A stretch of 64,000 bases of DNA. It comes from Nannocystales bacterium. Its GTDB lineage: Bacteria > Myxococcota_A > Polyangia > Nannocystales > Nannocystaceae. Positions 33,001-39,000 of this stretch are shown piece after piece. The position numbers were made by a program. The stretch is taken from NCBI GenBank assembly GCA_050633305.1, contig JBOEGF010000008.1, positions 478,474 through 542,473 of the forward strand. The letters run 5' to 3'. Positions within the stretch are counted from its first letter, which is position 1. The number at the start of each line of letters is the position of its first letter.

Positions 33001-36000
33001 CCGGAACCTGAGACTCGAATTGCGAATGAGCCGGCGAGCCGCTACACATCCGTATGGCTCAATCCCCTCTCGAAGAGTTCGTCGGTTCCATGACGATCTC
33101 CGAACTCGCGGACCGAAGCGGAAGGTCGGTCAGTCAGATTATCGCTTGGGCAACCCCGGGGAAATCGGGTGAAAGCAAACCAGCAGCTCCTCGAGCTGCT
33201 GCCAAGAAAGCGCCTGCAAAGCCAGCGCCTGCGGCGAGCACCGGTGGTGGCAAGAACGTCAACACCCGCACTCCCGAAGGTCGGGCTGCGTACGACGTCG
33301 CGGTCTTTGAGGCCGTGTCCGCTTCGAACAAGCCCATCGGGTCGTCGAAGCTTCGCAAGGCCATCGGCGGAACCCCGCTTCAGCTTCGCACGTCGCTGAA
33401 CCGTCTCATCGAAGACGGGAAAGTGACCTACCAAGGCAAAGCTCGCGCGACGAAGTACTCACTGCGCTAGCAGTTCGCGTCACAATGCTACCGAGGGCCA
33501 GTCGTTCACTGAGAACGTCTGGCCCTCCACATTTCTGCGAGGCAGGTTTTTACCCCTCCGAGTGCTGCCTCTCGCGGCAAGTTGAACCGGCGAACCATCT
33601 CGTCGGCGATCATCTGCGCCGAACGGTTCCCATCGATCAGCTTCGCGACCGCGGCAAACATCGGGTGCGGTGGTCGATAGTCTTCCAGGCCAGGCCATGG
33701 CGAGACGACAACCGAAGGGTCCTCCAGCCAGACGGGGATCTCGGCTTCGCTCGGCGAACCAGGCAGGTCGGTCTTCTCGGCGAGAAACGTCGCAACTCCC
33801 TCGGTTCGTCCTTGGGACCCATCGGGGCTCTGCATATACAACAGACGGTCCCAACGGTGCCGAGCCAGGGAGAACCCCGTCGCCTCAACGAGTTCGTGCA
33901 CCTCATCCTCTCGGTACCGATGGGCAGGCTGCGTGTGCTTCGGCTGGTACAGCAAGGGCCCGTGGTTGAGCCACGCGCCACCGTCCCGAAGAGTCCGGTG
34001 GATCGTCGGCACGAGGGTGGCGAGGTCCTTCGGGACTTGGTCGATGAACCAGGGGGTCAGCACCAGGTCAAACGAGGCGTCCGGAACCGGCGGTTCCAGA
34101 CCATCGGCAAACAGCAGATGAAACCCCTCGGCTGCCGCGTTCGAACAACCGAGCGCTCGCTCGACAGCGACGCGGTGACTGTCGCGTGGGGATCGCGGGA
34201 ACTCGGTGAGCGTGACCGTCTCGCCCGCGAGCACGCGCCTCGCGACGAAGAACGGAAACGGGTTGATGTCGATGGCAACCGTGGTCTCGATGCCCGCCGC
34301 GCGATGCAGTTCGTAGGGTAGCCGGCACGCGCCCGCGCCGAGAACGAGCAACCGTTGAGGTCGCCGATCCCCCAGCGTATCGAGGAGAACTTCGAGCGCA
34401 GCCTCGGGCTCGCCTGGTCCCCAGCCCCAGTCGCGGTGAATCTGATCGAAATACGCGGTTGCCACGCCCTCTCCCGGGACGCGCTCGCCACGCGAGACCG
34501 GCTCGTCCACGGCCGGGACACCCGCGGACTCGAACACCGCCTCAACCTGATCGAGGTGTCGCTCGAGCGAGGCGCCCAAGCGCTGAAGCCGAGCGCGAGC
34601 CTTCGGCGGAAGCTCCTGACCGGCGAGTTGCGCAAGCACCAGATCCCCGGTTGCACGACTCTCGCGCGAGAACTGAGCCCGTTGGTTGCCCCAGTCTCGG
34701 AGCATGGACGCGGGGTCTGGGGTGAGAACCGGGATGCCGTCGACCCGAAGACCCACACGGGTGCACTCGGGGCAGTCTCGGCCAGCACCGTCCCAGTCCA
34801 GACGCAGCAGGCACCGGGGGCAATGTAGGTATGCATCTTTCACTGGCGCAGGTCCGGCAGACAACGACCACATCGCAACATGTGAAATACGGTAAACGCA
34901 AGTTCAGACGGCTCGTGCGTGGCAAATCGGGGGTAGAGTTGGCCCCGACAGCCGGTTTTGTGTTTATGCGAAACCGCTGAAGGTTGCATGGCTGTCGGGC
35001 CATGCACGGACGGCCTGCAAAGGCGCACACGGATCCGAGGAGCTCTGCGTTGAAACTGCGAACCCGAATACTCTCCACGTCCCGCCCCCTCGCGACGCTC
35101 GGATTGCTGGCCCTGGTCGCCGCCGGCTGCAACGGAGGTGCCGCGAATGGTGGCGAGACGGATGGCGACAGCGGCACCGACAGTGCCGAGACGATGCCGA
35201 CCGACCCCACCAGCGGAGACACCGACGGAGACACCGACGGAGACACCGATGGCACCACCGGCGATACAGGGCCAGAGGGATTCGTGCCGCTCCCCGGAGG
35301 GATGCGAAAGCTCACCGCTCGGGAGTACACGGCATCGCTGGGACTCATGCTCGGGGACGCCGCGGCGACAGCCGCGATTCCCCCGCCAGACATCGCCCAA
35401 GAGGGTTTCGATGCGGTCGGCGCGTCCATCCTCGCTCTCCCGGCAGACACCATTGAACTCTACGAGCGCTCCGCAACCGCGGTCGCCGACGCGGTCATCG
35501 AGAACCCCGCCGGGCTCCAGGCCTTGGTCCCGTGCGTCTCTGAGGACGCGAACGCTGCGTGTTACCGCGAGGTCGCGACCACGCTAGGCCGATTCGCGTA
35601 TCGGCGCTCGCTCGACGCCGAGGAGATCGAGAGCATCGCCGGGTTCGGAGCCGCAGGCCAACAATGGGCGGACGACGGTTCGTTCATGACCGGCCTTCGC
35701 TACGAGCTGATGGCCATCCTTCAGGCTCCGTCCTTCCTCTACATCCAAGAGGTTGGCGAGGCAGACGAGTCCGGCTACCGCCACCTGACGGGCCCCGAGT
35801 TGGCCTCGCGAATGTCCTTCTTCCTCACCGGGCACACCCCCACGCTCGAGTTGCTCGATGCGGCGGAGTCCGGTCAGCTCGACACGGCCGATCAGGTTCG
35901 CGCCCAAGCGGAGCTGATGGTCGCGAACTCGGAGGCCCGGACCGCCCTCGAGGCGTTCTTCTCGGAAGCCCTGCGACTGCGCAGTCTCTCGGATGCCCCC

Positions 36001-39000
36001 AAGAACGCCGAGGTGTTCCCAGAGTTCAGCCCCGAGCTTGGCGAGTTGATGAAGGACGAGACGCTCCTACTTCTCTACGACATCATCTGGGACCGGGACG
36101 CGGACTTCCGCGAGCTGTTCAACGCGCGTCACACCTACGTCAACGACGCGCTCGCAGACCTCTACGGGATCCCATCACCGGGCACCGGCCAACTGTTCGC
36201 ACGCGTGGACTGGCCCGAGGACCAACTACGTGCGGGATACACCTCGCAGGCCAGCTTCTTGACCTGGCAGTCCGGTCCACTACGCAACTCCCCAACCAAG
36301 CGCGGCCTGTACATCCAAGAGCGGATCCTGTGCGGCGACATCCCGCCGCCCGACCCCAACGTCGACCTCGAGCTGCCGGAGGGAGAGGACCTCACGCTCA
36401 AAGAGCTTCTCGAGATGCACCTCGACCAACCGGGGTGTGCGAGCTGCCACGCGCTGACCGACCCGCTCGGCTTCGCCTTCGAACGCTACAGCGCGATCGG
36501 TGCGCTGCGCTTGATGGACAACGGCAAGCCCGTCGAGACCGACGGACAAGTCGAGGGCATCGGGATGTGGAACGACGCTCGCGAACTTGGCGACGTTCTC
36601 GCGGCCGACCCCCGTACGGGTGACTGCCTCATTCAAAACCTCATGCGCGGCAGCCTCGGGCAGTCGCCCAGCGAGGATTCGCTGCCGGGCGTCGAAGACC
36701 TCGGCCTCACGTTTGCCGATACCGGCTACAGCGTGCAGTCCCTTCTGGTCGAAATGGCCGCTCACCCCCTGTTCCGTCTCGTCGACGAACCCAAGTAGGG
36801 AGAACCCAGATGCGCAACTTCAAGCTAAGCCGACGCCGCATGCTCCGAGGACTGGCCGGCGGTTCCTCCGTCGTCGTGGGCCTTCCCATCCTCGAGGCCA
36901 TGCTCAACAGCCACGGCGACGCTCTCGCCGGTGGCGAAGCGCTCCCGCTGCGTTTCATGAGCTGGTACTGGGCCGACGGCATGGTCATCGACCGCTGGGA
37001 GCCCCAGCAGGTCGGCAACAACTGGGAGCTCTCCGAGCAGCTCATGCCGCTGGCCAACGTGAAAGACCACGTCACGGTCGTCTCCGGGATGCAGAACCGG
37101 TCGACCAACATCGTGACGCACCACGAGGGGATGTCCGGGTTCAACGGATACAACTTCGAACAAGCCGGTGGTTTCAACACCAACGCCGGCGGTCCGACCA
37201 TCGACCAGCGCATCGCCGACACCCTCGAGGGCGTCACGCCCATTCGTGCAGCCCACGTCCGGGTCTCCAAGCGCGAGAGCACGGACGGCGACGGTGGCAC
37301 CACGTACATCGCCATGTCCCACCGGGAAACCGAGGGCGGCGGATTGGTGGCACAGACGCCTCAGGTCAACCCGCAGGAGCTCTGGCAGCTTCTGTTCGGT
37401 GAGTTCGTGCCCAAGCCCGACGACAGCGAGCTGAGGACCAGCATCCTCGACTACGTCCGTGAAGACGCGGGCGCGCTCCGTGGCAACCTCGGAACCAAGG
37501 ACCAGCAGCGAATCGACGCGCACCTCGAGGGCGTCTACGAACTCGAGCAGAAGATCCTGGCCACGCCGCCGACCTGCGACCTTCCCGACCTGCCGACCGA
37601 GACCAACACCGACACCGGTGGGGTCGAGCCCCTCTCCGCGACCAACGAGGCGATGGCGCGAATGATCGCGTACGCGTTCACGTGCGACATCACGCGAGTC
37701 GCGTCCTTCCAGCTCAAACGATTCGTCTCGGCGACCGTCTTCGACGAAATCGACGCCGGGGAGATCCACCACAGCGCGAGTCATCAAGGTCCGGGCAACG
37801 CCACCTACCAGGCCGGCGTCACCTACCAGATGCAGAAGTTCGCCGACCTCCTCGAGATCTTTGCGGAGACCGAGGATCTCAACGGCGACACCCTGCTCGA
37901 CACCTCGATCATCTACGCGACCAGCGACTGTTCCACTGGAGCCTCGCATGCGGTCGGCCGCCAGCCCATCTTGCTCGCAGGACACGGCCGCGGCTACCTG
38001 CAGCACCCCGGCATCCACTACCAAACGACGGCTTGGAACGGCAACCACAACAACCCGAACGGCGAGGAGAACATGTCCGACGTGTTGCTGACTTGCCTGC
38101 AGGCGTTTGACCCGGCGGCGGAGTCCGTCGGTGGCGGCCCACTCGAGTCCAACACGCCACTGACCGACATCGTCGCGTAGACGTACAGTCCCTGACGACA
38201 AGGCCGGCGCTGCATCGCAGCCGCCGGCCTTTGTCTTGGTTGCTTGGAAGGCTCGACGACTCTTCCCACAAACTCAGTCGAAGAGGTGCTCGAGCAACAA
38301 CCCTTGCACGTCTGTGGCCCGCACGACCTCGTCTTGGAGCAGCCGGGCCTCGCTGGTGAGAAACACGGGCCCTGCCTCTGGTCTGTCCGTGGGACGACCG
38401 TGAGAGCCCCGTACCAACGAGGTGTCGAAACCGATCACATCGAGCGGGGCTCGCTGGTTGAGAACCTTCGAGCGAAACAGCCGCGAGGCCACGTACAGCG
38501 TCGGCATCGGCAACTCGGGGTCGACGAACAGCTCGACCGGATCGTACCCGGGCTTGTTGTGGATATCGACATTGCGGGCGTAGTCCGGGGCCCGCGCGTC
38601 GTCGAGCCAGAAGTAGTAGCTGAACCAGCGGTCGGCCTTGGAGATCGCAACAAGCTCTCCGGAGCGGTCGTGATCCAGACCGGCCGAGCGTTTGCCTTCG
38701 TCGTCGAGGACCGTCTCGATCCCCTCGACGCCCTCGAGCAGAGTCTTGACCTCCGCCACCCGCCCCGGGTTTTTTACATAGACGTGCGCGATTTGGTGGT
38801 CGGCGACCGCAAACGCCTCAGATGCGCCCGCATCGAAGTGCTCCTCGTTGCATTCCTCGCGAAACGCAATGAGTCCAGCCTCGCGGAGCACCCGGTTGAT
38901 GTGGACCGCTCCGCTGACCGACGTGATGCCGTACTCGGAGAGCACCACCACCCGAACGTCGTCGCGCTCTGCTTCGTCGATCAGAGTGCCGCACACGGCA

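Follow-up and report, generated by a model that had tools for sequence, protein, structure and literature searches.

The window analysed here, a stretch of 64,000 nucleotides from a Nannocystales bacterium, contains a gene for a bacterial methyltransferase with the fold and imidazole pocket of carnosine N-methyltransferase (CARNMT1), lying beside a DUF1592-DUF1552 gene pair to which its homologues are linked far above chance. We tentatively propose that this enzyme is dedicated to its own cassette and methylates histidine at N-pi in the Tat subunit, acting as an accessory maturase of the adjacent pair. The three ORFs all lie where the first-pass annotation had placed them, and their coordinates agree with the divergent gene order it described, with the methyltransferase on the reverse strand and the pair on the forward strand:

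33506..34873, reverse strand: CARNMT1/CARME-family SAM-dependent methyltransferase, 455 aa, without evident signal peptide
34763..34822, reverse strand: Cys4 zinc ribbon of the methyltransferase (C18, C21, C34, C37), Trm112/YcaR-like
34040..34042, reverse strand: D278 of the methyltransferase, aligned with CARNMT1 D316 in a sequence-profile alignment
33509..33751, reverse strand: C-terminal helical tail of the methyltransferase, with weak PqqD likeness
34984..36798, forward strand: DUF1592-type probable lipoprotein with PSD3-PSD5-PSD4-PSCyt3-PSD2 matches
36810..38180, forward strand: DUF1552 (HXXSHH) protein with a twin-arginine leader and a predicted alkaline-phosphatase-superfamily fold
37119, 37782 and 37947, forward strand: codons of the invariant DUF1552 histidines H104, H325 and H380

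A promoter and terminator scan of the locus stayed at chance level, and its GC profile shows no island.

The CARNMT1-like fold previously assigned to the methyltransferase is borne out by Foldseek (best CARNMT1 match E 1.5e-16), by structural superposition and by the CARME family (PF07942; E 8.9e-13, 48.6 bits against a cut-off of 27), which all 63 homologues match at E<=0.01. The predicted model has a pLDDT of 92, and its VIA structural match to CARNMT1 (Z 26.5, rmsd 3.0, 302 aligned, 18% identity) places residues 40-369 on chain positions 60-409, including the N-terminal helical part. The statement that the top eight Foldseek hits are all CARNMT1 needs a small correction, as CARNMT1 occupies ranks 1-7 and 9 and OvsM rank 8. 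Translation may in fact begin at the GTG at 34843, given that residues 1-12 have a pLDDT below 50 and most homologues shown begin near residue 11. At E<=1e-30, the bacterial family comprises 583 representatives.

In the sequence-profile alignment, CARNMT1 D316, the imidazole-orienting residue according to the portions of the published work considered here, corresponds to D278, which is invariant in 125/125 homologues. CARNMT1 F313 and Y386 correspond to W275 (124/125) and Y346 (109/125). Since the imidazole pocket is kept, histidine-type N-methylation is the likely chemistry. CARNMT1 H347 is replaced by Q310 (His in 39/63 close homologues) and Y396/Y398 by R356/E358; the absence of these residues points to a different substrate surround and, therefore, to a homologous subfamily rather than a CARNMT1 orthologue.

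Two appendages surround this core. The N-terminal Cys4 ribbon is confirmed by the presence of all four cysteines in 49/49 alignment rows and by a profile match to 2kpi (E 6.7e-8); Trm112p (PF03966) is matched by 19/63 homologues, while this methyltransferase on its own gives no match. The likeness of the tail to PqqD stands as a weak one, with an E-value in this protein of 0.042 instead of the 0.004 reported earlier, a Pfam score of 14.6 bits against a cut-off of 23.4, matches at E<=0.01 in 11/63 homologues and a profile match to 5sxy (E 0.0024). The count of four tail-less homologues was wrong: the tail is absent from 30 of 68 loci, present in 36 and unclear in 2. As a whole linked clade lacks it, a PqqD/RRE tail cannot be essential.

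The first partner, the DUF1592-type protein, is probably a lipoprotein (its signal was judged by eye), likely starts at the TTG at 35050 and carries one CxxCH heme-c motif (36436-36450). The second matches HXXSHH with E 1.8e-51, and this genome holds 38 full copies of DUF1552, a 123-aa fragment and 4 weak matches, close to the 39 copies counted before. The sulfatase/alkaline-phosphatase fold claimed for it holds in the predicted model (pLDDT 84, sulfatases E 3e-6), for which 50/50 rows are alkaline-phosphatase (AP) superfamily matches (best Z 16.3, rmsd 3.9, 280 aligned); searching the PDB by sequence with the DUF1552 profile gave nothing significant. The histidines formerly numbered His70 and His291 are H104 and H325 of the ORF, conserved in 87/88 and 88/88 rows, and H380 is a third invariant one (88/88). 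In the model, H104 caps helix 105-112 in the register of the sulfatase nucleophile, so that a histidine, not the Ser/Thr/Cys nucleophile of sulfatases and phosphatases, stands at the helix N-cap; it lies 9-10 residues before [TSN]G in 61/88 rows, the motif being missing in 25. From this register, H104 would occupy the sulfatase-nucleophile position.

The link between enzyme and pair, also put forward in the first-pass annotation, is real. DUF1552 or DUF1592 lies within 0.5, 3 and 10 kb of the enzyme in 33, 44 and 48 of 68 loci, against 2.1, 4.2 and 9.1% at randomly chosen sites of this genome, which is rich in paralogues. In a second locus set from a whole-genome search, 13/30 were linked within 3 kb, or 11/17 of those with full 3-kb flanks. 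Linked loci show four gene arrangements, the convergent one being commonest (25/44), which indicates that co-transcription is not the rule. The linked DUF1552 span several clades rather than one (AU p 4e-5, 26 chosen rows), and of 11 additional enzyme copies, 9 are accompanied by a pair of their own at most 3.6 kb away on the same strand. No partner was found within the DNA covered in 20/68 loci, nor was a DUF1592/DUF1552-type neighbour found for seven outer bacterial relatives that keep the Asp. Apart from the pair, the only recurring neighbours are a Ser/Thr kinase family (17/68 loci) and families restricted to closely related loci (9 or fewer). The placement of the gene in an ebo cluster is correct as local synteny and does not extend across lineages: ebo genes lie near 7/148 loci, all close kin, and membership of an ebo cluster was rejected.

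A divergent form of the module, composed of a DUF1592 homologue and a probably DUF1501-like Tat protein wrongly labelled GspF, precedes the gene in a distant enzyme clade, whose partner bears the label Steroidobacteraceae (49/80 metagenome loci; no partner in 10/65 informative ones). The homology of DUF1592 across both modules is firm (hhalign 97.6%), and DUF1552 and DUF1501 themselves align over their full length (99.3%). The "GspF" protein resembles DUF1501 clusters in the atlas (0.92), whereas its hhalign match to DUF1501 is only 15.6%, the DUF1501 Pfam model matches 0/24 members, and hhalign against DUF1552 recovered only the Tat leader (10%). No relatives of this protein were found in plasmids or viral contigs.

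In a set of 72 Nannocystales genomes, enzyme and close DUF1552 relative coincide exactly: the same 21 genomes carry the enzyme and a DUF1552 sharing at least 58% identity with the one here. DUF1552 occurs without the enzyme in 46 of the 51 enzyme-free Nannocystales genomes and in 68/150 other genomes of the phylum (17 weak, partial phylum matches, E about 1e-9, were left out of the homologue counts). In twelve sister DUF1552 taken from genomes that lack the enzyme, H104, H105, H238, H321, H325 and H380 are all present; linked and enzyme-free proteins differ near the predicted site at A55-D56, K303 and F305. A single trans-acting maturase for all ~39 paralogues was therefore rejected, given the enzyme-free DUF1552 genomes and the extra copies with their own pair, as was a histidine unique to linked DUF1552. 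The hypothesis that DUF1552 is the substrate thus loses its broad form, with the sisters keeping their histidines, and is strengthened by the divergent second module and the position of H104.

In the reading that we tentatively prefer, the enzyme would be active in the cytoplasm, using SAM to methylate histidine at N-pi (N1) in the service of the neighbouring pair, and a histidine on one of the exported proteins may be its target. DUF1552 would fold in the cytoplasm and leave via Tat, one of its active-site histidines having been methylated before export: H104, or H325/H380 as probable metal ligands. The methyl group could tune or protect a metal site working with the heme-c lipoprotein, as an optional, cassette-specific modification without which the family at large would do. 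A complex prediction (enzyme residues 13-455, SAM and DUF1552) scored 0.00 and was not counted as evidence. A bolder version, which we consider doubtful, is that a protein-histidine methylase of the CARNMT1 line puts N-pi-methylhistidine where sulfatases carry formylglycine, the Tat-exported DUF1552/DUF1501-like proteins having converted an alkaline-phosphatase fold into His-ligated redox metalloenzymes wired to a heme-c lipoprotein.

Ranking close to the preferred reading is the possibility that the enzyme N-methylates a small imidazole compound, such as a heterocycle, a His dipeptide or another derivative of histidine, which the pair in the periplasm would produce, degrade or employ as a mediator. 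CARNMT1 was initially known for methylating carnosine, according to the portions of the literature covered, OvoA/OvsM are the next-best folds, and the same histidines in enzyme-free DUF1552, with differences at other near-site positions, fit a substrate-specific pathway. Nevertheless, no biosynthetic or transport gene is common to the 68 loci among recurring neighbours, ovothiol-type genes do not recur near the enzyme, and it is unlikely that several unrelated DUF1552 clades plus a DUF1501-like partner have a single small substrate in common. It is rather improbable that the target is instead the DUF1592 heme lipoprotein, an unannotated peptide or another protein. DUF1592 is the partner with firm homology across both modules, its H479 and H489 are invariant across the 35 rows compared, and the PqqD-like tail presumably resembles leader-binding domains; however, a lipoprotein exported by Sec would be folded in the SAM-containing compartment for only a short time, and no small recurring ORF was seen near the enzyme among ORFs of at least 80-90 aa. 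Slightly less probable again is a purely historical linkage, a block inherited and transferred without functional tie. Many loci are close kin, most DUF1552 lack the enzyme, and within clades the enzyme and DUF1552 trees match (r 0.68 over 54 pairs), a pattern that inheritance would produce by itself; against this, adjacency persists through all four arrangements, through switches of partner clade and through the move to the divergent module while other neighbours change. Least probable is a SAM-binding sensor or folding/export chaperone of the Tat protein, for which the added domains and a fly CARNMT1 orthologue described, in the part of the source considered, as a SAM sensor would speak, against pocket residues that are invariant or nearly so.

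With human (5YF0-2) and yeast (5X62) CARNMT1, the enzyme shares the fold, the RDW and GxG motifs and the equivalents of Asp316, Phe313 and Tyr386; it differs in being bacterial, in its 18% identity, the Cys4 ribbon, the optional tail and the R/E pair at Y396/Y398. The portion of PMC10546975 covered gives the range of CARNMT1 conservation as yeast to mammals, and our literature searches turned up no publication on bacterial members. The methyltransferase domain of OvoA, OvsM and OvoM (thio/selenohistidine N-methyltransferases) are also bacterial; OvoA and OvsM (Z 19.3 and 18.6) fall clearly below CARNMT1, with a shorter match. The PSCyt3/PSD+DUF1552 and PSCyt2/PSD1+DUF1501 pairs of Planctomycetes and Verrucomicrobia set a heme-c protein beside a twin-arginine protein, as here. 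In the parts of PMC3542564 and PMC5615132 covered, these modules are highly expanded, with many paralogues of unknown function, and neither an AP fold nor a histidine in nucleophile register is mentioned; PMC3542564 mentions a methyltransferase 0 times, unlike this cassette. Our searches, confined to main texts, found no report of a link between CARNMT1-like enzymes and DUF1592-DUF1552, on which Text S1/Fig. S7 of PMC5615132 (PSCyt neighbours) may bear.

Three genes would suffice to test bacterial protein-histidine methylation directly in a large family that retains its imidazole pocket and has a named candidate target, and the cassette offers an entry into the PSCyt/DUF1552/DUF1501 modules. 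Methylation at the formylglycine position, if true, would be a new kind of active-site maturation and the first handle on these systems; a small-molecule substrate would make this a moderately interesting new subfamily of bacterial methyltransferases. Formylglycine-generating enzymes of sulfatases are a model of active-site maturation, and the sulfatase Cys that they modify shares its register with DUF1552 H104. Sulfatases cannot do without their maturation, whereas most of the DUF1552 genomes searched lack this enzyme. Methylated histidines are described in the covered parts of reports on fungal LPMO, whose His1 receives a tau-methyl group from NHMT (PMC10349129), and on MCR, which carries 1-N-methylhistidine (PMC7581889). 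NHMT, MCR and the sulfatase maturation enzymes are unrelated to this enzyme, and the likeness lies in the modification of a residue in the active site of an enzyme that is exported or contains a metal.

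The methyltransferase gene, of the CARNMT1/CARME family, lies inside an ebo cluster and is divergent from a DUF1592-type and a DUF1552 gene (hereafter, the pair), and the gene order in the window agrees on this point with the first-pass annotation:

29660-33011, plus strand: eboD-E-C
33054-33470, plus strand: helix-turn-helix-like ORF of 138 aa, Ala/Lys/Pro-rich, with weak similarity to a winged-helix family (PaaX, E 0.019)
33506-34873, minus strand: methyltransferase
34984-36798, plus strand: DUF1592-type gene, divergent from the methyltransferase
36810-38180, plus strand: DUF1552 gene
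within 38274-41184, minus strand: eboF, a TatD-like gene and eboA, in that order after DUF1552
41209-42821, minus strand: two neighbouring membrane proteins, each with a long tail that is acidic and of low complexity, and no Pfam family above cut-off

The cassette cuts the ebo cluster into two converging halves (29660-33011 and 38274-41184), which flank it also in four closely related genomes of the collection and on one metagenome contig, the closest named relatives being Nannocystaceae. Ebo genes were found near the methyltransferase in 7/148 loci, all of close relatives, and the 138-aa ORF adjoins it in seven loci of close kin.

The link to the pair, claimed previously, was recovered in the 68 methyltransferase loci of the genome collection chosen by two peptide patterns. 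DUF1552 or DUF1592 was located within 0.5 kb in 33/68 loci, within 3 kb in 44/68 and within 10 kb in 48/68, against 2.1, 4.2 and 9.1% for random places in the source genome; the other 20/68 show neither, several of them on short contigs. Apart from the pair, the only recurring neighbours in the 68 loci are a Ser/Thr kinase family (17/68) and families of close kin. The 44 close cases comprise 25 convergent (including L009, where the genes overlap by one base), 8 divergent and, on the same strand, 8 with the methyltransferase last and 3 with it first. In a whole-genome search, which shares some loci with this set, the methyltransferase was present in 46/300 genomes of the class; the 37 matches outside the source's family divide into 30 core members, 13 of which have a partner no more than 3 kb away (11/17 where flanks are complete), and 7 outer relatives, with none. 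One methyltransferase copy is broken into two frames (L032:394-1826), and two copies stand in tandem at L035:7587-10305.

The source genome has a single methyltransferase gene; its strong DUF1592-type genes number 39, and its DUF1552 genes 38 at full length, with one fragment besides. In a quick tree of 88 rows, the linked DUF1552 are spread over at least three distinct clades and some strays, and their union in a single clade was rejected (AU p 4e-5, on 26 rows selected after viewing that tree). The distances among methyltransferases correlate with those among their DUF1552 partners (r 0.68, 54 pairs, 0/2000 permutations), a value inflated by kinship; the two trees disagree at depth. The methyltransferase is present in 21/72 Nannocystales genomes, from five genera and as kin not independent, and exactly these 21 carry a DUF1552 that shares 58% identity or more with that of the window, the best among the other 51 reaching 56%. 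In addition, 9/11 extra methyltransferase copies have their own same-strand pair within 3.6 kb. Therefore, the methyltransferase behaves as a member of a three-gene cassette. One genome (G198, C172:28496-33237) is the only one of six in its genus with the cassette, its DUF1552 being 84% identical to the window's, possibly through transfer or a binning error.

The proposed resemblance to human CARNMT1 held: CARNMT1 occupied Foldseek ranks 1-7 and 9 with the methyltransferase model (pLDDT 92), and structure comparison gave Z 26.5 over residues 40-369, with OvoA (19.3) and OvsM (18.6) lower. Pfam CARME matched at 48.6 bits (cut-off 27), and a profile built from 125 homologues (124 picked among the 150 matches listed, plus the protein of the window) aligned to human CARNMT1 with E 3.9e-18. 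With an offset of 47, inferred from CARNMT1 chain length and end, D316, F313, Y386 and H347 map to D278, W275, Y346 and Q310, and Y396/Y398 to R356/E358; conservation over the 125 rows is 125 (D278), 124 (W275), 109 (Y346), 115 (R356) and 119 (E358). In CARNMT1, D316 positions the imidazole with N1 towards SAM, according to PMC10308197 and bioRxiv 10.1101/2024.07.18.604158. Thus, with D278, W275 and Y346 retained and R356/E358 replacing Y396/Y398, the histidine pocket is kept and its surround changed, and the chemistry is likely histidine-type N-methylation. The N-terminal ribbon is Trm112/YcaR-like. The PqqD likeness of the C-terminal tail is indeed weak, but the tail, earlier reported missing in four homologues, is absent in 30/68 loci, many of these tail-less genes being nonetheless linked to the pair.

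DUF1552 (model pLDDT 84) matched sulfatases (E 3e-6), and all 50 rows of a wide structure search belonged to the AP (alkaline-phosphatase) superfamily (best Z 16.3), as expected from the fold assigned before; likewise, the twin-arginine motif, earlier counted in 32/39, was found in 37/38 paralogues, a number that benefits from the trimming of sequences at this motif. Three histidines are nearly or fully invariant over 88 rows: H104 (87), H325 (88) and H380 (88). H104 caps the helix following the second core strand, and its spacing to [TSN]G is 10 residues in 34 rows and 9 in 27, the motif being absent in 25; Cys and Gly lie 10 apart in two sulfatases of the source genome. A histidine would therefore occupy the nucleophile position, and there would be a His-rich metal site, more probably redox than hydrolytic given that the partner is a heme protein.

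The 80 top-ranked of 571 metagenome matches revealed a second, divergent module: in 46/80 loci a twin-arginine protein is encoded on the same strand up to 600 bp upstream of the methyltransferase, and in another 3 it lies up to 1.3 kb away. DUF1552 was seen in 5 loci, a divergent DUF1592 homologue in 1 and nothing in 10, while in 15 the upstream DNA was too short to score. The gene run is DUF1592 homologue (hhalign 97.6%, 284 columns, CxxCH included), LamG lipoprotein, Tat protein and methyltransferase. This Tat protein, automatically named "general secretion pathway protein GspF", belongs to a family of at least 8000 proteins, two homologues being labelled Steroidobacteraceae; its H168 is invariant, 10 before a Gly, and its next look-alikes are DUF1501 clusters (0.92). 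DUF1501 aligns with DUF1552 over the full length (99.3%), but with the "GspF" protein at 15.6% only, the C-terminal motifs agreeing; therefore a fold as in DUF1501/DUF1552 is likely for it, and the family, probably DUF1501-like, seems to bear the wrong name. Many of these loci (L091-L166, e.g., L125:2459-17125) encode, downstream of the methyltransferase, TlpA-type thioredoxin and TPR proteins, along with genes that we take to be ApbE-like and ExbB-like, presumably reminiscent of gliding-motility Glt clusters. The source genome has 12 DUF1501 matches (contigs C53, C21, C24, C10, C2 and C8), several adjoining weak DUF1592-like genes.

In the literature searched, neither a bacterial CARNMT1 nor its link to the pair was found described, and according to PMC3542564 and PMC5615132 the PSCyt/DUF modules have no known function. 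We conclude that this is a genuine subfamily of bacterial CARNMT1 proteins, as yet uncharacterised and tied to predicted exported heme-c/AP-fold modules. Some outer bacterial CARME proteins lack the Cys4 ribbon (L277:5970-9726 in G331; L278:5319-9211 in G418); upstream of them lie genes for a CobW-type GTPase and a WD40 protein, downstream a His-rich probable lipoprotein, and they could be histidine methylases of metal homeostasis.

As the target of the enzyme, we tentatively favour the Tat subunit, at somewhat under even chance. A small molecule is a less likely, still serious candidate; some other protein as target we consider improbable, the lack of any functional tie to the pair slightly more so, and a non-catalytic protein is the least probable reading. 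Several results were counted against a protein substrate: DUF1552 stands above cut-off in 68/150 other genomes of a phylum sample, where a full methyltransferase or CARME match was found in 0/150; it occurs in 46/51 methyltransferase-free Nannocystales genomes; and in twelve DUF1552 sisters from methyltransferase-free genomes these histidines are conserved as well, the differences lying elsewhere in the sequence. If it exists, the modification is optional. The His1 methylation of LPMOs in filamentous fungi, which protects from oxidative damage according to PMC10349129, offers a parallel.
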